Shown here piece by piece: positions 2,534 to 52,126 of a stretch of 64,000 bases of DNA. A program made the position numbers and the translations under genes. The DNA is taken from NCBI GenBank assembly GCA_965204055.1, contig OZ241967.1, positions 322,144-386,143 of the forward strand. Direction: 5' to 3'. The stretch's first letter is position 1. Each line of letters starts with the position of its first letter. Below the pieces are notes generated by a model. The model was not told the DNA's origin, searched no databases, and saw nothing but the letters and a program-made list of their open reading frames with translations. The stretch is from Bdellovibrionales bacterium. Its GTDB lineage: Bacteria; Bdellovibrionota; Bdellovibrionia; Bdellovibrionales; UBA1609.

Positions 2534-3928
2534 ATGAAAAAATATATCTCTATTATTCGAACTTTTCTATTCCCTTTGATGTATCTGTCTTTTTTTATGA
2601 TTTGCCTGTTTTTGCCACTTATCTTATTTTCTGCTACAGCCAACACTTTAGATGATCTATTAAAAAAAGTTTTGGAAGAAAGACAATTTGAATCAAAAGA
2701 ATTTCAAAAAAGAGAACAGTTATTCAAAGAAAACAAAGATAACCGAAAAAGCCTTTTAATAAAAGCTAAAAAAGAACTAAAAAAAGAAGAACAAATCAGC
2801 CAACGTTTAACCTCTGAGTTTGAAAAAAACGAAAAAGAGCTAACTATATTAGAAAATGAACTAAATATCACAGTAGGGGTTTTAGGAGAGCTTTTTGGAG
2901 TGGTAAAACAAATCGCTGGAGATTTTCGAGGGCAAACCCTTAACTCTTTGGTCTCAGTAGAAATACCAGGACGCGAAAAGTTTGTAGAGACTGTCGCCAG
3001 CCGAAAAAAACTTCCCACTACTAAAGAGTTGCAGAGGCTTTGGTTTGAACTGCAAAGAGAAATGACAGAACAAGGGAGAGTGACCCAATTTCCGGCAGAA
3101 GTGATTACCTTAGATGGAAAAAAATCAAAACAAGCAGTGACCCGTGTAGGGGTATTTAACCTCATAAGCCAAGGAAAATATTTAAACCACCAAGGGAACT
3201 TAGCTCAAATTGTAGAACTACCTAAACAACCAGAACGGCACTTTACCCGTCACATTAAAAAAGTAGAAAAAGCTAAGGCCCACTCTTTTCCTGTGTTTGC
3301 TGTAGATCCTTCCAGAGGATCTTTGATCTCTATTCTTATTAGCGCGCCTGGTTTTTTGGAAAGAATTAAACAAGGTGGAGTGGTGGGCTTGCTGATTATT
3401 ATTATATTGCTTTTTGGGCTGGGTTTAGTGGTGGAGAGAACAATCGTTATTAGCAAAGAAGAGAAAAAAATTAAGGCACAACTCCTAAGTGCTGAACCAA
3501 AAGAAGATAACCCTGTGGGGCAAATTCTTTCCCTGTATGAAAAAAATAAGCTCTTGGATATGGAAACTTTGGAAATGAAATTAAACGAAATAGTAATTAA
3601 ATACCTACCTAAGGTGGAAAAAAGAATAGGTGTTATAAAATTACTTGCAGGGGTGTCTCCCCTTATGGGGCTTTTAGGTACAGTGATAGGGATGATTTTG
3701 ACTTTTCAGTCTATTACCCTGTTTGGCACAGGAGATCCTAAGCTTATGGCGGGAGGGATTTCACAAGCTTTGGTTACCACCATGCTGGGGTTGATTTGCG
3801 CTGTTCCCCTTCTACTTAGCCACAGTTTTATTTCCAGCCGATCCCAAAAAGTGGCACAAATATTGGAAGAACAAATTGCCGGATTGTTAGCTAAAAAACT
3901 GTTAGATAAAAAAAAGGGAGAGAAGTAA
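2534..3928 (+). CDS. Large MotA/TolQ/ExbB-family proton channel protein (TtpC-like)
   Basis: 464 aa. Coiled-coil N-terminal half, then TM helices with the ExbB signature (LLAGVSPLMGLLGTVIGMILTFQSI...GGISQALVTTMLGLICAVPLLL). Size and position after DUF3450 match TtpC of TonB2 systems. Confidence 0.8.
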   Translation: MKKYISIIRTFLFPLMYLSFFMICLFLPLILFSATANTLDDLLKKVLEERQFESKEFQKREQLFKENKDNRKSLLIKAKKELKKEEQISQRLTSEFEKNEKELTILENELNITVGVLGELFGVVKQIAGDFRGQTLNSLVSVEIPGREKFVETVASRKKLPTTKELQRLWFELQREMTEQGRVTQFPAEVITLDGKKSKQAVTRVGVFNLISQGKYLNHQGNLAQIVELPKQPERHFTRHIKKVEKAKAHSFPVFAVDPSRGSLISILISAPGFLERIKQGGVVGLLIIIILLFGLGLVVERTIVISKEEKKIKAQLLSAEPKEDNPVGQILSLYEKNKLLDMETLEMKLNEIVIKYLPKVEKRIGVIKLLAGVSPLMGLLGTVIGMILTFQSITLFGTGDPKLMAGGISQALVTTMLGLICAVPLLLSHSFISSRSQKVAQILEEQIAGLLAKKLLDKKKGEK

Positions 3929-25530: not shown

Positions 25531-25564
25531 AGTGGTATCGTCTCTATTACTAAAGGAACCTCTT

Positions 25565-26716
25565 ATGGACATAAAGCGGATTTTGGATCTGAGAGCTTTA
25601 TTGAAAAAAAAGTCCTTTTTTCTTTTTGGGCCACGACAGGTAGGGAAAAGCTATTTGATTCAACAACAATTAAAAAACTCAGCCCTTGTCATCAATTTGT
25701 TGGACAGTGAATTGAACTACAGACTTCAACAGGAACCTTCTTACCTGAAAGCTTTAATCAATAACAAGACAAAGAAACAAAAATATGTTGTTATTGATGA
25801 AATCCAAAAAATACCTGAGCTGTTAAATTTGGTACATTTGCTTATTGAAGAAAAAAAAATACATTTTTTGTTAACAGGAAGCAGTTTCAGAAAATTAAAA
25901 AGAAAAAATGTTAACCTGTTAGCAGGACGAGCATGGAATGCAGAGCTATTTCCTCTTGTTCATATCGAAACCCCTCGGGTTTCCCTTGAGAAAAGACTAC
26001 TTTATGGTTCTTTGCCTTATGTGTACTTGAGTCCGGAACCTTGGGAAGAACTAAAAGCTTATGTCTCTAATTACTTAATGCTGGAGGTTCAGACAGAGGG
26101 GTTGGCCAGAAAACTTCTAAACTTTCATAGTTTTTTAAAAGGTTCTGCTTTAAGCAACACACAAATTTTAAATTTTGCCAAAATAGGAAATGATTATGGT
26201 CTTTCTGCCAGCAGTGTCAGGGATTATTATGATGTTTTGCAGGATCTTCTTTTAGGTTTTATGGTTACACCCTGGAGAAAATCCAGGAAAAGAAAAGCCA
26301 TCAGTAAGTCCAAATTTTATTTTTTTGATACAGGTCTTGTGCACGCGCTGTGCGGAACACGGGTGCTCAATGAGCACTCTGATCTTTATGGAAGAAGCTT
26401 TGAAAACTTTATTGCCAATGAGCTTAAAGCCTATTTAAGTTACTTCAGAAAAGAGGACCCTTTGTGCTTTTGGCAGTCCACTTATGGGCACGAAGTGGAT
26501 TTTATTATCGGGGATCATAGTGCCATAGAGATCAAATCTTCCAAAAGAATATCCCAAACTCATTTCAAAATGTTAAAAATATTGTCTGAGGAACATACTT
26601 TTAAGAATCGCCTGTTGGTGAGTCGGGACAGGATACAAGCTGACTTTGATGGCCTTGTTAGTTTGCACTGGGAGACCTTTTTGAAAAAACTGTGGAATCA
26701 TGAAATCGTGCCCTAA
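25565..26716 (+). CDS. AAA+ ATPase with DUF4143-type C-terminal PD-(D/E)xK-like domain (paralogue A)
   Basis: FLFGPRQVGKS (Walker A), VVIDEIQKIPE (Walker B), LTGSSFRKLK, C-terminal GHEVDFIIGDHSAIEIKSS. ATG 25565 is preferred over the track GTG at 25532. Confidence 0.8.
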   Translation: MDIKRILDLRALLKKKSFFLFGPRQVGKSYLIQQQLKNSALVINLLDSELNYRLQQEPSYLKALINNKTKKQKYVVIDEIQKIPELLNLVHLLIEEKKIHFLLTGSSFRKLKRKNVNLLAGRAWNAELFPLVHIETPRVSLEKRLLYGSLPYVYLSPEPWEELKAYVSNYLMLEVQTEGLARKLLNFHSFLKGSALSNTQILNFAKIGNDYGLSASSVRDYYDVLQDLLLGFMVTPWRKSRKRKAISKSKFYFFDTGLVHALCGTRVLNEHSDLYGRSFENFIANELKAYLSYFRKEDPLCFWQSTYGHEVDFIIGDHSAIEIKSSKRISQTHFKMLKILSEEHTFKNRLLVSRDRIQADFDGLVSLHWETFLKKLWNHEIVP

Positions 26717-32113: not shown

Positions 32114-33274
32114 TTACTCTAAAAAAATAGATTTGAGGGCGGTTTTCCAAAATAAACACTCTATCCCCTGGATCCTCTTGTCGGTTTTATCCTGTGACCA
32201 CACTTGAGCTTGGTGGTTTTCCGGCCAGTCTTTTTTTAAACGAGATAATGTTTTAACATGTTTTTCCTGAATACTGTTTGTAGACTTAATTTCCACCAGA
32301 AGATCCGGTTTTCCAGGTCTTTCCATAATCAGATCCACCTCTTGCCCCTCTTTAGTTCTTAAGTGGTAAAAATTAAAGTCTTTTCTGGAGTATTCATTCA
32401 AGTAAAAGCATTCCAATATCATTCTATGCTCAAAGGCGTCTCTATAAGCATGAGTCCTTTCCATAAGCGGGATGTTGACTTGTTTGTCTAAAGCTCTCTT
32501 GACACCTGTATCAAAAAAATAAAACTTAGGAGATAAAACATGCTGTTTGCGAAAAGATCTATGATAAGCAGGAAGGAAAAAACCTAAGAGGGTGTCTTCT
32601 AAAACAGAAAAATAATTTTTAACGGTTTTGCTATCTGCCCTTATATCTCCTGCGATATGGGAATAGTTGACAATTTTTCCGTTTTGTTGGCTTGCCACCC
32701 TAAGAAAATCTCGAAAAGGATTTAATTTCCTGATAATTTGTTCCAAAACAATTTCTTCTTTTAAATAGGTTTGCGTATAGCTTTTTAAAAAATCTATTTT
32801 ATCCTGCTTTGTTTTTTTGTTCAAAGTTTCCGGCAAAGAACCAAACTCTAATATATCGTGGATGCTTGTGTTCGCGCTTAATTCAAAAACGGAAAAAGGG
32901 AATAGATAATAGGAAAAAGCTCGACCAGCCAACAGATTGCCAGAACCTCGTTTTAATTTACGCGCGCTGGAACCTGTTAAAACAAATTGAATATGAGGTT
33001 TTTCGCGCATTAATTTTTGCACAATATCCAACAGCTTAGGCACTTTTTGAATTTCATCAATAACCACCTTTTTATAGTGTTTTTGATTTAAGATCAAAAG
33101 TAATTCATCTGGGTTTTGAGAAAACTTTTCCTCTTCCTCATAAAGCAAAAGATCTATCCACAAAGTATTGGGAGAGCGATACCGGCTTTCTATAAGAGTA
33201 GATTTTCCAGTTCCTCTGGCTCCAAATAGGAAAAAGCTGTTATTTGAGTTAAGTTCAGGCATTCTCTGTATCAT
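32114..33274 (-). CDS. AAA+ ATPase with DUF4143-type C-terminal domain (paralogue B)
   Basis: FLFGARGTGKS, VVIDEIQKVPK, LTGSSARKLKR, C-terminal GQEVDLIMERPGKPDLLVEIKS. Confidence 0.8.
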   Translation of the reverse strand: MIQRMPELNSNNSFFLFGARGTGKSTLIESRYRSPNTLWIDLLLYEEEEKFSQNPDELLLILNQKHYKKVVIDEIQKVPKLLDIVQKLMREKPHIQFVLTGSSARKLKRGSGNLLAGRAFSYYLFPFSVFELSANTSIHDILEFGSLPETLNKKTKQDKIDFLKSYTQTYLKEEIVLEQIIRKLNPFRDFLRVASQQNGKIVNYSHIAGDIRADSKTVKNYFSVLEDTLLGFFLPAYHRSFRKQHVLSPKFYFFDTGVKRALDKQVNIPLMERTHAYRDAFEHRMILECFYLNEYSRKDFNFYHLRTKEGQEVDLIMERPGKPDLLVEIKSTNSIQEKHVKTLSRLKKDWPENHQAQVWSQDKTDKRIQGIECLFWKTALKSIFLE

Positions 33275-35519: not shown

Positions 35520-36704
35520 TTAAAAAAGCTCATTTTTCCAAAGTTTTTTCATAAATAGGGAATAAGGCAAAATCTCTATCCCCTGTGTTTTGTCGTTCTT
35601 GGTAAAGCTTTCTGATTCACTTAAAAGTCGAGGCTGAGGTTCTAAACAAACAACAAATCTTTTTTTTAAAGAAGGATATTCTTTTTGGACCTCTTTCAGT
35701 CCTTTTAAATCATGGGAGACAATCTTTTTTTTGGCTTTGGCTTCAATAGCAGTATCCATATTTCCAATAATAAAATCCACCTCTATTCCGTTACTCAATC
35801 TCCAATAAGAAAAATGACAATTCAACTCTTGATAGCTCAGATAAGCTCTTAGTTCATGGTGAACCCAGTTTTCAAAAGCTTTGCCGAAAAAAGGATTGCC
35901 CGGCTGTAAATCCAATCTCCTGGCGAGATGATTAACAATACCCACATCACAAAAATAAAATTTAGGTATAGATCTGGTTCTTCTTTTAGGCTTTTTCCTG
36001 TAACAAGGTAGAAAGGAACCTATTAAAGTATCTCTAAGAATGTAAAAATAATTTTTTGCTGTAACAGCTGAAATACCGCATTCTCTGGCAATATTTGTAA
36101 AACTCACCGGCTCTGTGTCCGATAGAGCTGATAACTCTAAAAAATCATTAAAGACAGAAAAATTTTGAATAAAGCCCTCGTGTGCAATCTCTTCCCGTAA
36201 ATAATCATCACAGTAACTTTTTAGAGCACGTTTCGGGTTTTTAGTGGCAAAAATTCCAGGGAGATAGCCGTTGTTTAACCTATCATTTAAAGAAAAATCT
36301 GACTTTAATTCTGAAGAAACAAAGCCAAATAGTTCAAAACGATCAGCGCGACCTCCCAATAAATTAATGTGCCCCTGTTTAAGACGTTTCGCACTGGAAC
36401 CACAAAGCCCAAACACTAATTTTTTATTTTCAATAAGCCAATGCACTTCATTCAGCAGTTCCGGTACTTTTTGGATTTCATCAATAATAATAAGAGATTT
36501 TTTAAACTGGGGGGAAGAAAGCTCTTGCCTGAGAAGAGAGGGGGTTTTCTTATATCGCACAAATTTATCTGTGTTCAGCAGATCAATGAAAAAAGCATGG
36601 GGATAAACAACCTTAAGAAGGGAGCTTTTTCCTGTTTGCCGTGCCCCCCATAGAAAAAAACTGCGGGAGGGTTTTTTATCCAAAATCAATTTCCGGGTGT
36701 ACAT
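35520..36704 (-). CDS. AAA+ ATPase with DUF4143-type C-terminal domain (paralogue C)
   Basis: FLWGARQTGKS, IIIDEIQKVPE, LCGSSAKRLKQ, C-terminal GIEVDFIIGNMDTAIEAKA. Confidence 0.8.
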   Translation of the reverse strand: MYTRKLILDKKPSRSFFLWGARQTGKSSLLKVVYPHAFFIDLLNTDKFVRYKKTPSLLRQELSSPQFKKSLIIIDEIQKVPELLNEVHWLIENKKLVFGLCGSSAKRLKQGHINLLGGRADRFELFGFVSSELKSDFSLNDRLNNGYLPGIFATKNPKRALKSYCDDYLREEIAHEGFIQNFSVFNDFLELSALSDTEPVSFTNIARECGISAVTAKNYFYILRDTLIGSFLPCYRKKPKRRTRSIPKFYFCDVGIVNHLARRLDLQPGNPFFGKAFENWVHHELRAYLSYQELNCHFSYWRLSNGIEVDFIIGNMDTAIEAKAKKKIVSHDLKGLKEVQKEYPSLKKRFVVCLEPQPRLLSESESFTKNDKTQGIEILPYSLFMKKLWKNELF

Positions 36705-44892: not shown

Positions 44893-45309
44893 ATGAGCAA
44901 TATCAATTATGAAAAACTAAAAAAATCTCTTGAGAAATTGGAAGAACAATATGAAAATTTTCTCACATTGGATAAAAAAAATATATCCGATCTTGATAAA
45001 GAGGCTATTAAAGAATCTGTTATACATAGGTTTGAAGTTTGCTATGACATTTTTTTTAAAAGTTTGAAAAAATATCTCCAGAAAGAAGGATTAACTGTGG
45101 ACTCAAGTGCCCCAAGAGCTATCCTTCGTAAAGCTAATGAAAGCGGTTTGATAGATCAGGAAACATTAGATAATTGGTTTGCCCATATTGAGTTAAGAAT
45201 AGGAACAGCTCACGACTACAGTTTAGAGAAAGCAGAACAAGCTTTAAGAAAAATAAGTGATTTTATTGAAGATGTGAAAGATATTTACAAAGTGATGTGT
45301 TCTTTATAA
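44893..45309 (+). CDS. HEPN-domain protein, HI0074 family (nucleotidyltransferase substrate-binding protein)
   Basis: ESVIHRFEVCYDIFFKSLKKYL and the Rx4H motif ELRIGTAHDYS. 138 aa. Followed by an MNT domain. Confidence 0.75.
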   Translation: MSNINYEKLKKSLEKLEEQYENFLTLDKKNISDLDKEAIKESVIHRFEVCYDIFFKSLKKYLQKEGLTVDSSAPRAILRKANESGLIDQETLDNWFAHIELRIGTAHDYSLEKAEQALRKISDFIEDVKDIYKVMCSL

Positions 45310-45338
45310 TTTCAAGTACTATTAGGAATAAAAATAAA

Positions 45339-47444
45339 ATGGTTAAAGAGAATTTAATAGATCTGGATAGAAAGCAACTTAAGCTTTTACAGGCAATCAT
45401 TAAAACTTGTATTCCCGGTAAAACAGTTTGGGCTTATGGTTCTCGTGTTTTTTGGAAAGCAAGAGAAAACTCTGATTTGGATTTAGCTGTTTTTGGTTGT
45501 TCTTCCAGGCAAATATATAATTTTAAGGAGGCTTTAGAGGAAAGCAATTTGTTAGTTTCTGTTGATGTAATGGACTGGGAAAGTATACCTGAAAGCTTTA
45601 AAGTCAATATCAAAAAAAAATATGTAGTTTTACAGAAAAGCGAAGATATATTAGACTCACAGGAAAACAATATTGAAATTTCTATTAGCCGGGAGCATGC
45701 AGTTTATGCCAGAGATATAGAAAAATGTTTTGGTGTATTGAATGTAAAAGTCCAGCCTAATTTTTGTCGAAAGTCAATAGACGAGCTTCCGATGAAGATT
45801 ATAATTTTTCTTACAGAAGTAGTTGTTACAGGTGCATTCTGGGAGTTACTAAAGGCAGGAATTAAAAAAGTTTTCAAAAACTTTAATCAAGTTAATATGG
45901 ATATTGATGATAATAGGCCAAATAAGAATCCTAATATAATGCGCTATACAATAGATAGTGATGGAAATGTTTTTGTATATGCGGATTCTTCTGAAAAAAT
46001 AAAAGAATATTCATATATAAAAACCATTGATGATTTATTAGAACATTTGAAAAATCAAGCTTCACAAAGCAAGTCCGCTTCAGGAGGCAAGTCATCTTCT
46101 GGAAACATGTTATCCTCAGGAAGTAAGTTATCTTCAGGGAGCCAGCCATCTTTAAGAAGTTTGTCATTCCCGCGAAGGCGGGAATCCAGTCAAAAAAAAA
46201 TTTTCTCTGGATTGACTGATCAACCTATGTTAAAAGGCTGGCGCAAAGTGAAACTTAAGGAAATAATTAACTTAATAGGAGGAGGTACACCTAAGACTAA
46301 TATACCGGAATATTGGAATGGAAATATTCCATGGCTTTCAGTGACAGATTTTAATACGGGCAGAAAATATGTGTATAGCACTGAAAAATATATTACCAAT
46401 CTTGGGTTACAAAAAAGCAATACAAAAATCCTTAATAAAGATGACATTATTATTTCTGCAAGAGGAACTGTAGGGGTTGTTTCTATGACAGGAAAAGAAA
46501 TGGCCTTTAATCAATCATGTTATGGAATAAGGGCTAAAGATGAATCGTTTAATGAATATATTTACTACTTGTTAAAAAATACCGTAAATCAGCTACAACA
46601 TATTTCTCATGGTGGGGTGTTTGATACAATTACAAGAGATACCTTTAATAAAGTTGAAGTGCCTCTTCCTCCACTTCTTGAGCAAAAAGCGATTGCAGAG
46701 GTCTTGTCCAGTTTGGATGATAAAATTGAACTATTGCATGAGCAAAACAAAACTTTGGAAGAAATAGCTCAAACCCTTTTCCGCAAGTGGTTTATCCAGG
46801 ACGCCAACCCCCATTGGCCACAAAAACCTTTAGATGAATTGCTAAGTACAATCGAGTCTGGTTCACGGCCAAAAGGAGGAATTAATCCAGAGTTAAAACA
46901 AGGGATACCTAATATAGGGGCTGAAAGCATAAATGGTATAGGAAGATTTGACTTTTCAAAAACAAAATATGTAACAGATGAATTTTTTAAAAATATGAAA
47001 AAAGGGGTTGTAAAAGATTATGATGTTCTAATCTATAAAGATGGTGCTTATATTGGCAAAAAAGCAATGTTTGGCAACGGATTTCCTTTTAAGAAAATGG
47101 CTGTCAATGAGCATGTTTTTATTTTAAGAACCAACAGTAAAGCAGATCAATTTTTTCTTTATTTTTCACTGGAACAGAAAAAGTTATCAAAACTAAATGC
47201 TAATTCCGCCCAACCGGGCTTAAATCAAAAATCTATGAAGTCTCTTAAGATCATTATCCCACAAAAAGATATAATAAATAATTTTCAGAATACTGTTAAG
47301 CCGTGGATTGATAAGATACTTTTTAACAGTAATCAAATCAGAAATCTTGCAGATCTTCGCAACACCCTCCTACCCAAGCTAATAACCGGTCAAGTCCGAG
47401 TAACTTTTAAAAATAAAAAAACACAAATAAGTTCATCTTGTTAA
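45339..47444 (+). CDS. hsdS: Minimal nucleotidyltransferase (MNT) domain continuous with a type I specificity subunit (apparent MNT-linker-HsdS fusion)
   Basis: MNT motif GSRVFWKARENSDLDLAVFG...VDVMDW. No stop codon up to TAA 47444. Ser/Gly linker from 6 x 18-bp repeats (46069-46176). HsdS part begins at MLKGWRKVKLKEIINLIGGGTPKT (46227), with central LPPLLEQKAIAEVLSSLDDKIELL and C-terminal LADLRNTLLPKLITGQVRV. Confidence 0.65.
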   Translation: MVKENLIDLDRKQLKLLQAIIKTCIPGKTVWAYGSRVFWKARENSDLDLAVFGCSSRQIYNFKEALEESNLLVSVDVMDWESIPESFKVNIKKKYVVLQKSEDILDSQENNIEISISREHAVYARDIEKCFGVLNVKVQPNFCRKSIDELPMKIIIFLTEVVVTGAFWELLKAGIKKVFKNFNQVNMDIDDNRPNKNPNIMRYTIDSDGNVFVYADSSEKIKEYSYIKTIDDLLEHLKNQASQSKSASGGKSSSGNMLSSGSKLSSGSQPSLRSLSFPRRRESSQKKIFSGLTDQPMLKGWRKVKLKEIINLIGGGTPKTNIPEYWNGNIPWLSVTDFNTGRKYVYSTEKYITNLGLQKSNTKILNKDDIIISARGTVGVVSMTGKEMAFNQSCYGIRAKDESFNEYIYYLLKNTVNQLQHISHGGVFDTITRDTFNKVEVPLPPLLEQKAIAEVLSSLDDKIELLHEQNKTLEEIAQTLFRKWFIQDANPHWPQKPLDELLSTIESGSRPKGGINPELKQGIPNIGAESINGIGRFDFSKTKYVTDEFFKNMKKGVVKDYDVLIYKDGAYIGKKAMFGNGFPFKKMAVNEHVFILRTNSKADQFFLYFSLEQKKLSKLNANSAQPGLNQKSMKSLKIIIPQKDIINNFQNTVKPWIDKILFNSNQIRNLADLRNTLLPKLITGQVRVTFKNKKTQISSSC

Positions 47445-49009: not shown

Positions 49010-49555
49010 GCTTATATGTGTAATACACTACTTCCCCCCCTGTCAACCTATTTGTTTTAATCAGATTCAGATTCAAATTCAGAAATTATAAACCAGATTC
49101 CCGATTTCACAGGAATGATAATCTCAATTTTATATGATTATAAGGTATTCCTGACTTCCGCATTTTAGAGATGGTTTGAGAAAGGTCCAGTAAAAAAAAG
49201 CTTATCATTCCATTGAGTTATATTTTTTTAAAATCAGGACAAAATGTAGTGGCCATTGTAGTGGACAAGCCCTCTTAATGCTCTTATAACGAACCCATGT
49301 TTGTTAGAGCTGTCAAAAAAAATAATGACCACCGTTACAATATGCGACATTTGTTTTTTGTCCCGCGCGCGTCTTCTGTCCGTGGTGTGTTTAAAGCCTT
49401 TTTGTGGGGCTTTATTTGCAAAATAAAGATGGGCAACCTCAAAAAAACTACTTTTTTTTAATCAATTTTCTAAAGTTTTCTCTCACTAAGCCGATAAGTG
49501 ATGTATGAAAGTATAGTTCCTTAATACATACTAAAGAGAAACAAGGAGTGAAAAA

Positions 49556-51370
49556 GTGAGAAAAAACCCATTTTACCCCCCCCCCCCCCCGCACCGCGTC
49601 ATTCTTAGGGTTCTTAAGAGGGCCTTGTTTAACAAAAAAGGCATTGGACTAATGGAAACCCTGATGGTTAGTGCTTTAGGCTTAACCATCAGCTATGGCG
49701 TTTTTAAAGTGAATGAAGTTTCTATGTACACCGCAAAGGTAGTCAATAGTAATTTGGATCAGAAGGATTTAAGAGGCACTATTTATAAAACTTTAGGTAA
49801 TAAAGAGGCTTGCGTTCATAACTTAAAGAAGCCGGCCAGCTCTTCCCCAAAAACTTCTATAACTTCTTTACAGGCCAAGAGTGGGGCAAATTGGATTAAC
49901 TTAATTAACAGTCAAGCAAATCAAAACCTATTTAAAAATAGTTTAAGAATCCAGAAATTTGAATTTAAAAATAGCAAAGATTTTATTATTCATTACAGCA
50001 AAGAGGGTTTAGGTAGGCACGAGACTTTGGCCAAGTCAGATGGGACAAAGGGAGTTTGCACTAAAACAGACACCACAGATTGTTACTCCGTAGAGTGTAA
50101 AATAGATTTTTCCTGTAGTAATAATGATTGTGATGGGTCTGGTGATAGGTGCTCACTTTTAGATTGCACAGGCGGGGCAGAAGGGGGCGGTGGTGCAAAC
50201 TGCTATCAAGTGGATAACACAGGGCCAGATAAAGCTAAAACCCTTATTGGTTGTGGTGGAGCGCACAAAGCCAAAGGAGAAAAGGTCACTGTTTTAGGTT
50301 TTGGCGCGGGTAAAGTTAACGAGGGCGATAATAACACTTTTTTAGGAGCTTATGCGGGATATAGAAACACCAGTGGGGACCGTAATGTTTTTGTAGGGGA
50401 AGTGGCCGGGAAGGTTAACACCAAAGGGAAACAAAACACTTTTATAGGTGTTGCCAGTGGGCATAAAAACCTCACTGGGGCTTATAATACTTTTGTAGGG
50501 ACATGGGCCGGGGCAAGCAATGTCACAGGGACAGATAACACCTTTATTGGACAAGATGCGGGCAGACACAACACGTCAAATTTTAACACTTTTGTTGGAA
50601 AAAAAGCTGGCCTTAACAATGCGGGTGGGGGGGGTAATACTTTTATAGGAGAAAGGGCAGGAGAGAGTAACAATTCTGGTTACCACAACACTTTTATTGG
50701 TTCTGGTGCAGGTTTAACCCATAAAACAGGGCACGATAACATTGTTATAGGGAGACATGTAAAGCTTGATTCAGCCACTGGTAGTAACCAGATTAACATT
50801 GGTAACATAATAAAGGCTGGTTCAGGTTTCTTACAAATATGCGATAGCACCGGAAATAACTGCTTAAAAATAAGTAAAGCAGGGCTTAAATGTGATGAGA
50901 ATCATTACTTTAGAGGGATAGATAATGACGGCAATCCTATGTGTCATTCTTTACATACAGTAAGATTTTCTGGTCATTGTGGGGGAAATCAATATCTTTA
51001 TGGAATATCAAGCTCTAATAGGCCGATGTGCAGAAATCTCCCCTCTGGTGGTGGTGGTGGCACACCCGGACCAGCCGGGCCACGCGGACCAGCCGGACCA
51101 GCCGGACCACAAGGACCACAAGGACCTCCTGGTGAAGCAGGAACAACCGCTGAATTAAAACGGAAAGTTTTAGGAAATACCAGTTGTCCAAGTGGACAAA
51201 TATTTCAAAACAGGTTTGATGCTAATGGAAATATGGTATGTATAACAAGAGCGCAAAAATGTAGTAATGATGGTGGTAGATGGTGTATGAGAAGAAATAG
51301 ATGTCTTTATTGCTCGCCTTGGGAAATTACGGATATGAGTGAGTGTAGATGTTTTGATAATAGTAGATAG
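49556..51370 (+). CDS. Prepilin-leader protein with tail-fibre-like repeats, collagen run and Cys-rich C-terminus
   Basis: AAGGAG RBS 7 nt before GTG 49556. Leader ...ALFNKKG|IGLMETLMVSALGLTISYGVF, with Glu at +5. About 9.5 x 17-aa NTF(I/V)GxxAGxxNxxG units (50333-50810). GTPGPAGPRGPAGPAGPQGPQGPPGEAG. Confidence 0.8.
   Translation: MRKNPFYPPPPPHRVILRVLKRALFNKKGIGLMETLMVSALGLTISYGVFKVNEVSMYTAKVVNSNLDQKDLRGTIYKTLGNKEACVHNLKKPASSSPKTSITSLQAKSGANWINLINSQANQNLFKNSLRIQKFEFKNSKDFIIHYSKEGLGRHETLAKSDGTKGVCTKTDTTDCYSVECKIDFSCSNNDCDGSGDRCSLLDCTGGAEGGGGANCYQVDNTGPDKAKTLIGCGGAHKAKGEKVTVLGFGAGKVNEGDNNTFLGAYAGYRNTSGDRNVFVGEVAGKVNTKGKQNTFIGVASGHKNLTGAYNTFVGTWAGASNVTGTDNTFIGQDAGRHNTSNFNTFVGKKAGLNNAGGGGNTFIGERAGESNNSGYHNTFIGSGAGLTHKTGHDNIVIGRHVKLDSATGSNQINIGNIIKAGSGFLQICDSTGNNCLKISKAGLKCDENHYFRGIDNDGNPMCHSLHTVRFSGHCGGNQYLYGISSSNRPMCRNLPSGGGGGTPGPAGPRGPAGPAGPQGPQGPPGEAGTTAELKRKVLGNTSCPSGQIFQNRFDANGNMVCITRAQKCSNDGGRWCMRRNRCLYCSPWEITDMSECRCFDNSR
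49576..49590 (+). repeat. Poly-C tract (15 nt) inside the 5' end of the ORF
   Basis: Fifteen consecutive C at 49576-49590, encoding YPPPPP 20 nt after the start codon. A G8 run lies at 50627-50634 in the same gene. Confidence 0.95.
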
Positions 51371-51534
51371 AAAATAAGATTTAAGCTTTGCTTTCCAGCT
51401 TTTCAATGCGCTTTTCCAGTTTTTCTATATAATCCAAACGATTGTCCAATATTTTTTCAATCGTTTTAAACTCTTCAGCATGCAACAATGATCTTGGACT
51501 TGGGATTGTGGCTGTGGCGGGGGTCCAGGTAATC

Positions 51535-51650
51535 AAAACGGAAATACTTATTGTCCTTAGCATACTGGGGATAGTCGGCGGGATAGCGACTATTTCATAT
51601 AAAGGTTATAATTTAAGTGTTCAAAAGAAAGATTTAAAACTATCAGGGGA
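51535..51650 (+). pseudogene. Type IV pilin N-terminal helix fragment, truncated by IS fragment
   Basis: VIKTEILIVLSILGIVGGIATISYKGY aligns with the pilin consensus FTLIELLIVIAIIGILAAIAIPQY, but lacks a proper Gly-1 and leader. It abuts IS-derived sequence at about 51651. Confidence 0.4.
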
Positions 51651-52126
51651 GCCGGCCCTTTCTGATGTGCAAAGTTTAACAGGAGTTTGTTTAAAGCGAG
51701 TGTTTGTAGATAAAGGCTATAGGGGGGAGAAGCATCATCCTGAAGGATTGGAGGTTAATGTAAGCGGTCAGAGACCATCACCCAGTCGTTATCATCGCCG
51801 TTTGGCACGTCGAAGGAACAGTGTAGAGGCAGTGATAGGTCATTTGAAGGGGGATTGTCGTATGGAGAGGAATTTTTTACATGGTGAGCTGGGTGATGGA
51901 GTGAATGCTTTACTTTCTGGAAGTGGATACAATATAAGGAGATTGATAAGAGAAGTAAATGGGTTGCCTTCTTTTTTTGTTCTTTTTATCAAGAGGTTTT
52001 TTACTATGTTATTTTGTTTTTCGGCAAAGCCTTAAGTGGTGAGGGTCCAAGCGTTATCGTCCCGAACAAGCTTAAGGTTTTGCAGACCACAGCTTAAACT
52101 TAAAAGAGGTTTTTTCACGACCGATT
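51651..52126 (+). mobile_element. 3' fragment of the IS5-family element (last ~125 codons of the transposase + right end)
   Basis: Near-identical to 59505-60005 (PALSDVQSLTGVCLKRVFVDKGYRG...), with a small internal deletion. Ends ...GGTTTTTTCACGACCGATT. Confidence 0.85.

Follow-up and report, generated by a model that had tools for sequence, protein, structure and literature searches.

A poly-C tract in the leader-coding region of a pilin-like fiber gene is a probable translational phase-variation switch in uncultured Bdellovibrionales

In a stretch of 64,000 nucleotides (nt) from a Bdellovibrionales bacterium (GenBank assembly GCA_965204055.1, contig OZ241967.1, positions 322,144 to 386,143 of the forward strand; here called the window), a perfect run of 15 cytosines lies just inside an open reading frame (ORF) for a modular pilin-like fiber protein of 604 amino acids (aa). 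Our analysis indicates, with a probability of about 0.78, that this gene is subject to translational phase variation (a contingency switch), with the C15 tract as its hypermutable element. Such a role had been suggested from the sequence of the window, and comparison with related loci supports it: the homologous tracts range from C10 to C31 and occur in both in-frame and out-of-frame states.

The tract stands apart from its surroundings. The original prediction had called it an extreme outlier, and it is one: the window has a G+C content of 36%, the runner-up C run has 7 nt, and the longest G run has 8. The tract also exceeds the ~8 nt from which a G/C run can be expected to slip. Because the base composition of the window leads one to expect only about 1e-7 runs of this type, the tract is not there by chance. 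Its coordinates had been given exactly, as had those of the G8 run, the (GGT)4 repeat further downstream is present as noted, and the Shine-Dalgarno (SD) sequence AAGGAG is present at the predicted distance from the GTG start codon (Table 1). Replacing the tract in silico with runs of C11 to C19 left a full-length ORF at tract lengths of C12, C15, and C18 (603 to 605 aa), while C13, C16, and C19 yielded a peptide of 16 to 18 aa and C11, C14, and C17 one of 30 to 32 aa. The expectation that gain or loss of a single C would abolish the 604-aa product is thus borne out by simulation. Translation across the tract gives M-R-K-N-P-F-Y-P5-H, which agrees with the earlier reading of a tyrosine followed by five prolines; the added claim that the gene is currently in frame is only as reliable as the homopolymer call in what is probably a long-read assembly.

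We compared 12 loci of this family, namely, the window, L001, L002, L005, L006, L009, L010, L011, and two loci each in L007 and L008, drawn from at least eight assemblies that include one short-read scaffold (L006). All 12 carry a pure C run of 10 to 31 nt located 5' of the prepilin motif, and in all 12 a short ORF beginning upstream, at an ATG or GTG, leads into the tract. The frame of this upstream start matches that of the pilin in 3 of the loci, i.e., the window (C15), L001 (C12), and L007b (C20), and differs from it in the remaining 9: L002 (C14), L005 (C31), L006 (C10), L007a (C19), L008a and L008b (both C15), L009 (C16), L010 (C13), and L011 (C19). SD-like purine runs precede the upstream starts of L002, L006, L007a, L009, L010, and L011, and the GTG start of the window is found identically in L006. 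The genomes involved differ considerably in sequence, with the lysyl-tRNA synthetase (LysRS) of the window genome being 72 to 74% identical to those of the L008 and L010 genomes.

Read backward from the prepilin motif, the pilin frame meets no stop codon up to and across the tract in any of the 12 loci. The distance from tract to motif varies from 24 to 693 nt, and the linkers are open even where they span 200 to 693 nt. Summed over the 12 loci, there are no stop codons in 864 linker codons of the pilin frame versus 42 and 41 in the other two frames. Some of the long linkers (L008 4522-4935 and 9449-10141; L009 9795-10126) contain palindromic units resembling repetitive extragenic palindromes together with tandem copies, and here too the pilin frame is still open. 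The leaders predicted for L008 and L009 would have 110 to ~240 aa, far beyond known prepilin leaders.

Further support comes from gene calls in a representative protein library clustered at 50% identity. For four of the locus types that we see in the OFF state, this library contains fused forms from other assemblies in which the upstream peptide continues through a proline run (P3 to P7) into the pilin. These include P0127 (MKFLYKKHSY-P7; L008b type), P0121 (P6; L008a type), P0166 (MKSPVIIGKIH-P6; L009 type, 84% identical to the L009 protein P0069), and two proteins of the L010/L011 type, P0172 (P5) and P0198 (P3), the latter 86% identical to the L010 protein P0065. P0139 (P6) and P0149 (P8) are likewise fused through a proline run. 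Conserved architecture, variable repeat number, and the presence of both phases among relatives form the pattern that would be expected of a contingency locus. At the level of sequence comparison, exact tract lengths are not what the case depends on; it depends on the architecture being conserved, on the linkers being open, and on fused forms existing alongside unfused ones.

The composition of the tract points to selection on DNA. CCC makes up just 21% of the proline codons in 40 ORFs of the window, yet the run is pure C in every locus. We conclude that the C run is a DNA-level feature and, on the grounds of this codon usage, ruled out selection for polyproline.

Upstream of the gene lies a sigma-28 (FliA)-type promoter, the end of which is 78 nt upstream of the tract (Table 1). 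Transcription is predicted to start at ~49505, which would place the tract at about +70 of the mRNA. The motif occurs at the equivalent place in L001 (twice) and L002; its -10 part is found in L006 and a variant in L011. In Bdellovibrio bacteriovorus, the FliA-type motif TTAAG-N16-CCGATA marks two-thirds of the attack-phase promoters (PMC3627812). The sigma-28-type site of the window may likewise be used by FliA. We found no sigma-70-like site near or spanning the tract. With a sigma-28 site ahead of the tract and no sigma-70-like site across it, the tract is predicted to be part of the transcript, so that a switch would act on the reading frame. For the same reasons, and because the tract lies inside the ORF, we rejected a promoter-spacer switch of the Bordetella fim type. 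An RNA element was also rejected, as there is no Rfam match near the tract or anywhere in the window and the 5' region folds worse than shuffled controls (z = +1.66).

Two other features of this upstream region are conserved. Among the window, L001, L002, and L006, whose proteins are ~50% identical, the segment from the -10 box to the start codon (49498-49555) is better conserved than the coding region, which suggests a possible additional regulatory role for the 5' untranslated region (UTR). Further upstream, a block of ~100 nt ahead of the sigma-28 promoter (window ~49340-49440; L001 ~3400-3560) is conserved and, in L001, partly duplicated. This block contains a terminator-like hairpin, AAAGCC-TTTTTGT-GGGGCTTT, followed by ATTT.

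In the switch as we picture it, transcription would proceed from the sigma-28-type promoter ~80 nt upstream of the tract, and translation would run from GTG 49556 through the tract, read as proline codons, to the motif KKG/IGLME (the slash marks the predicted cleavage site) and on into a mature protein of 575 aa. Slipped-strand mispairing at replication would lengthen or shorten the tract by one C, whereupon translation would stop after 16 to 32 codons and no fiber protein would be made; a further slip would restore both the frame and the protein. The leader would probably be removed by prepilin peptidase, so that changes of 3n nt and the leader sequence itself would be irrelevant to the mature protein and the frame alone would count. 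With several loci per related genome, each with its own tract, the outcome would be a combinatorial, stochastically expressed repertoire of fibers. The product of the window gene would itself have a type IV pilin-like base, a phage-tail-fiber-like and collagen-like shaft, and a Cys-rich tip.

Table 1. Features of the fiber gene and its surroundings. Positions refer to the window unless a locus is named.
Feature	Position	Strand	Basis or remark
Sigma-28 (FliA)-type promoter, TAAAGTTT-N11-GCCGATAA	49471-49497	+	Zero-mismatch consensus match, the sole one in the window
SD sequence AAGGAG	49543-49548	+	7 nt 5' of GTG 49556; read from sequence
GTG start codon of the 604-aa ORF	49556-49558	+	Sole upstream start open into the tract; in frame with the pilin
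Whole ORF, modular pilin-like fiber protein (604 aa)	49556-51370	+	Sequence, AlphaFold2, Pfam matches of relatives
Leader-peptide coding region, M1-G29, MRKNPFYPPPPPHRVILRVLKRALFNKKG	49556-49642	+	Translation; holds the tract
C15 homopolymer, proposed slipped-strand switch	49576-49590	+	Perfect run, 20 nt inside the ORF
Conserved 13-mer, GCACCGCGTCATT	49591-49603	+	Directly 3' of the tract
Alternative in-frame TTG	49625-49627	+	Would yield the short leader MFNKKG
Predicted mature N terminus, hydrophobic pilin-type alpha-1 helix	49643-49795	+	AlphaFold2, profile search
NTFxG..AG..NT repeats, about nine	~50333-50755		
G8 run, encodes AGGGG	50627-50634	+	Inside the repeat region; possible secondary slippage site
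(GGT)4 followed by GGC, encodes Gly5	51047-51058	+	Trinucleotide repeat, cannot shift the frame
Collagen-like (G-X-Y)8	51068-51142		
Rpn-type gene, L001	6783-8012		
Rpn-type gene, L007	13193-14167		
Rpn-type gene, L008	13035-14051		
Rpn-type genes, L009	5200-6303, 7834-9243		
Rpn-type genes, L010	8644-9150, 12637-13395		

The encoded protein consists, in order, of the leader, a pilin-like domain with invariant cysteines, the NTFxG..AG..NT repeats, a collagen-like segment, and a Cys-rich C-terminal domain. The original prediction had labeled the gene pilin-like, a label that fits the class III signal KKG/IGLME, with Gly at -1 and Glu at +5, followed by a hydrophobic helix (KKG/IGLMETLMVSALGLTISYGVF); prepilin peptidase would be predicted to cleave between G29 and I30. 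The sequence G/IGLME conforms to the pattern G/[FILMV]G[LIV]xE, to which all close relatives adhere. The G(-1)/E(+5) motif is found in 77 of 141 library representatives, many of them with classical leaders of 4 to 6 aa. The window protein itself has no Pfam match at E values up to 1 and no NCBIfam match, and a profile search gave a weak match to residues 1 to 50 of the TcpA pilin (E = 0.11). Pfam searches with 20 aligned relatives returned PF07963 (N_methyl) in 4 (best E value, 2e-5) and PF13884 (Peptidase_S74) in 5; Peptidase_S74, a tail-fiber capping domain, is present in these relatives and not in the window protein. AlphaFold2 predicts a long N-terminal helix, at residues 32 to 80 of the full-length model and 3 to 52 of a domain model (predicted local distance difference test score, 73); this helix of 50 residues is followed by a six-stranded sheet and then by a regular repeat shaft. 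Foldseek searches of the PDB with either model returned no significant match. The product is therefore best described as pilin-like by motif, with a putative pilin fold.

The family of this N-terminal domain is small, with 175 representatives (E values up to 1e-3) among 1.84 billion proteins. Protein-pattern scans of a genome contig collection and of metagenome contigs from the Joint Genome Institute (JGI) returned no relatives, and the DNA pattern was not found in JGI metagenomes or in IMG/VR. As for type IV machinery, the window holds a single recognizable component, a PilT/PilB-type ATPase gene (PF00437; 61771-62895), and N_methyl genes adjoin the fiber gene in L001, L002, L006, and L008. 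The product is most likely a surface adhesin.

The public gene call for the window protein (P0001) starts at ATG 49652, corresponding to M33, and the calls for P0001 to P0005 all begin at an internal ATG (METLMV...) past the predicted cleavage site. These starts drop the prepilin motif and hide the tract, a systematic annotation error in the family. The practical lesson is that internal-ATG gene calls conceal both the prepilin signal and the switch in this family.

Several considerations weigh against a phase-variable switch. The 12 tracts compared belong to different loci and species and not to isolates of one strain, and reversible switching within one population is inferred. Apart from the window itself, the 12 loci come from other assemblies and do not include the window-genome paralogs P0002 to P0005. 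Homopolymers longer than ~10 nt are often miscalled in long-read assemblies, and most of the loci come from assemblies of long-read style; tract lengths may therefore be inexact, and any ON/OFF call, including that of the window C15, may be off by one. In-frame starts in 3 of 12 loci, about one-third, are also what random length errors would produce. Seven of the nine OFF loci would need one additional C, which raises the possibility of systematic under-calling, an excess that is not significant (two-sided binomial P, ~0.18). In the window locus, a prepilin with a short leader could be translated from TTG 49625, past the tract; prepilin peptidase does not usually act on leaders as long as 29 to ~240 aa; and if RNA polymerase slips on C15, the distinction between ON and OFF could be less than strict.

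This last point bears on an alternative that we consider unlikely, in which the tract is a graded regulator acting either through ribosome stalling at polyproline, with dependence on elongation factor P, or through RNA polymerase slippage that yields mixed frames from every allele. ON alleles do encode at least five consecutive prolines, C15 to C31 is long enough for transcriptional slippage (a process best documented for A/T runs), and most loci are nominally out of frame with long downstream ORFs intact. However, selection for polyproline predicts mixed proline codons, contrary to the pure C runs seen here despite the low share of CCC, and the frame across the tract is not kept among loci. 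Intact ORFs in OFF loci are, moreover, how reversible contingency loci behave. Graded regulation would in any case supplement DNA slippage and not replace it; the proposed switch may have a graded component on top, due to slippage in transcription or to stalling at polyproline.

We regard it as very unlikely that pilin translation instead starts past the tract at TTG 49625, in which case the tract would belong to the 5' UTR or to a short ORF upstream and its length would have little or no effect. The original prediction had also raised such a start; the TTG does exist in frame, though at 49625-49627 and not at 49626. A purine run, AAGAGGG, stands just before this codon, but at a distance of merely 2 nt. 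Similar downstream starts are present in L001 and L005, but conservation does not extend to L002 and L006, where the stretch from tract to motif contains no in-frame start and no other canonical start is available for a leader. The classical 4- to 6-aa leaders of many distant family members would fit a downstream start, as would the public gene call, which skips the upstream one. On the other hand, linkers free of stops in all 12 loci and over as much as 693 nt would be needless in a UTR, the upstream start-codon ORF leading into the tract is conserved in every locus, and fused full-length genes are called in other assemblies. It is scarcely credible that the tract regulates nothing and is a neutral mutational by-product or assembly artifact in genes that are silent or decaying. 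In favor of this view, long-read homopolymer lengths are error prone, L005 has only a truncated pilin fragment behind its C31, and the window gene sits amid restriction-modification and toxin-antitoxin-like genes upstream of a transposase-like ORF. Against it, all 12 loci have the tract although LysRS is only ~72 to 74% identical between the genomes, the short-read scaffold L006 has it as well, a neutral pure run of 10 to 31 nt would decay by point mutation, downstream ORFs of 500 to 1,000 aa are intact, and the promoter, 5' UTR, and SD sequence are conserved.

The phase-variation reading concerns the tract; its 3' flank is also shared. The conserved 13-mer flanks the tract in nine of the pilin-fiber loci (the window, L001, L002, L005, L006, both L007 loci, L010, and L011) as well as in L003 and L004. 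Within the ~170 kb of related loci that were retrieved, all 10 occurrences of the 12-mer GCACYGCGTCAT lie directly beside tracts. The window has no second copy of this 12-mer, and none is present at the tracts of L008 and L009. The 13-mer is read as A-[PL]-R-H in six loci, as P-H-R-V-I in the window and L006, and as R-T-A-S-F in L002. Between them, the loci thus use all three frames of the 13-mer; the peptide around the tract is not conserved, and we ruled out the 13-mer as a conserved peptide. The shared flank could have a DNA-level function, or it could be carried along by template switching between long tracts.

The L003 and L004 occurrences lie on OZ251471.1, a Bdellovibrionales metagenome-assembled genome with a LysRS 74% identical to that of the window; named LysRS matches at 63 to 65% identity likewise belong to Bdellovibrionales metagenome-assembled genomes. 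At these sites (L003 5827-5852; L004 3198-3218), a mid-gene poly-G run is accompanied by the same 12- to 13-mer in the opposite orientation relative to the gene. The two genes are paralogs encoding Cys-rich secreted proteins unrelated to the pilin-fiber family (the L004 protein has no Pfam match). The G9 copy is a continuous frame of 610 aa and the G14 copy is split into 493 and 169 aa, and homopolymer frameshifts therefore recur in the clade. It is conceivable, but on balance rather doubtful, that tract and 12- to 13-mer (Cn-GCACYGCGTCAT) make up a portable hypermutation module, retained at the DNA level in at least two unrelated surface-protein families, with a dedicated factor or template switching installing it or modulating its slippage, and that together with Rpn nucleases and mosaic paralogs it constitutes a dedicated system for fiber diversification.

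The window genome carries at least five mosaic paralogous fiber genes, with P0002 to P0005 encoded on the same 2.31-Mb contig as the window protein. In the alignment, columns 1 to 100 of the window protein are 100% identical to P0004, columns 101 to 400 are 100% identical to P0003, and columns 601 to 650 are 91% identical to P0002; the apparently exchanged blocks of 100% identity point to gene conversion within the family. The peptide NNAGGGGNTF, encoded around the G8 run, is also present in P0002 and P0003 and absent from P0004. Genes for Rpn-type PD-(D/E)XK nucleases (Pfam Transposase_31/PDDEXK_2) adjoin fiber genes in five related loci (Table 1), and a link between these genes and the mosaicism of the paralogs is possible.

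In the window, the fiber gene is surrounded by restriction-modification and toxin-antitoxin-like genes. The ORF downstream of it (51442-52035) looks by eye like a transposase fragment and has no Pfam match. Another ORF (45297-47444) encodes a type I restriction specificity subunit (two Methylase_S domains) with an N-terminal Polbeta nucleotidyltransferase domain; either the fusion is real and unusual or two ORFs have been merged. Within 11 kb there are also three AAA_14/DUF4143 ATPase genes that are paralogs of one another (25532-26716, 32114-33274, and 35520-36704), and genes of this type also adjoin the tract-bearing loci L003, L005, and L011.

The closest parallels to the proposed switch are found in Neisseria. 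In pilC, a poly-G run lies in the signal-peptide coding region, and gain or loss of 1 nt toggles a pilus-associated adhesin. As in pilC, the tract described here is a G/C homopolymer a few codons past the start, inside a leader that is predicted to be removed, and would act as a frameshift on/off switch. Unlike pilC, it is poly-C on the sense strand and the product is itself pilin-like, with a class III signal, whereas PilC is a Sec-exported pilus tip protein; the sigma-28-type promoter, the Bdellovibrionales lineage, and the leaders of up to ~240 aa in relatives are further differences. The opa genes carry CTCTT repeats in the signal-peptide region. Like them, the fiber genes form sets of paralogs for putative surface proteins within a genome, with a separate repeat in every leader-coding region; most would be OFF at a given time, and the paralogs are mosaics, as in opa through recombination. 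The opa repeat is a pentanucleotide and its product an outer-membrane beta-barrel, in contrast to the homopolymer and pilin-anchored fiber described here. In Bordetella pertussis, fim2 and fim3 have a poly-C run between promoter elements that acts on transcription. That run is similar in being ~13 to 15 C long, variable in length, and conserved in several paralogous fimbrial genes, but the present tract lies ~80 nt downstream of the -10 box, inside an ORF. The minor pilin PilV of the R64 shufflon has C-terminal segments varied by site-specific inversion. It too is a pilin-type adhesin subject to stochastic variation at the DNA level, with the variable part setting partner specificity; the variation there comes from inversion of a C-terminal segment and here from a leader frameshift. 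Simple-repeat phase variation is known mainly from host-adapted pathogens, and for Bdellovibrio and its relatives our full-text literature search brought up no description of phase variation through repeats.

The product also has counterparts. PilB of Streptococcus sanguinis is a modular pilin in which a large adhesion module is grafted onto a pilin moiety (PMC8179133). The window protein shares with it the class III signal, the long N-terminal helix, and the grafted large module, which differs in being a Cys-rich tip on a tail-fiber-like repeat shaft with collagen triplets. To our knowledge, modular type IV pilins have not been described as phase variable. The MAT proteins of B. bacteriovorus are reported to be chimeric tail-fiber-like fibers with an invariant N-terminal domain that lacks a structural homolog and a surface anchor yet to be identified (PMC10769870). 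The fiber shaft resembles theirs, and relatives of the window protein have the same C-terminal Peptidase_S74 module; the MAT N-terminal domain has no prepilin motif, unlike the prepilin-like N terminus of the window protein. That paper does not mention a homopolymer switch: the word pilin is absent from it, and the 24 uses of phase in 12 of 25 text places refer to the attack phase, microscopy, or crystallographic phasing.

The mechanism proposed is thus a classic one, of the Neisseria pilC/opa type, and what is new is the lineage and the gene class. The setting appears to be an uncultured Bdellovibrionales clade with a family of pilin-anchored, tail-fiber-like surface proteins, every one of them under a sigma-28-type promoter and a switch of its own. 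Only the name Bdellovibrionales suggests that this clade may be predatory; if its members are indeed predators or epibionts, these loci offer a testable handle on population bet-hedging in prey or host recognition, in parallel to phage tail-fiber variation and the recently proposed contingency loci of phages (PMC12633550).

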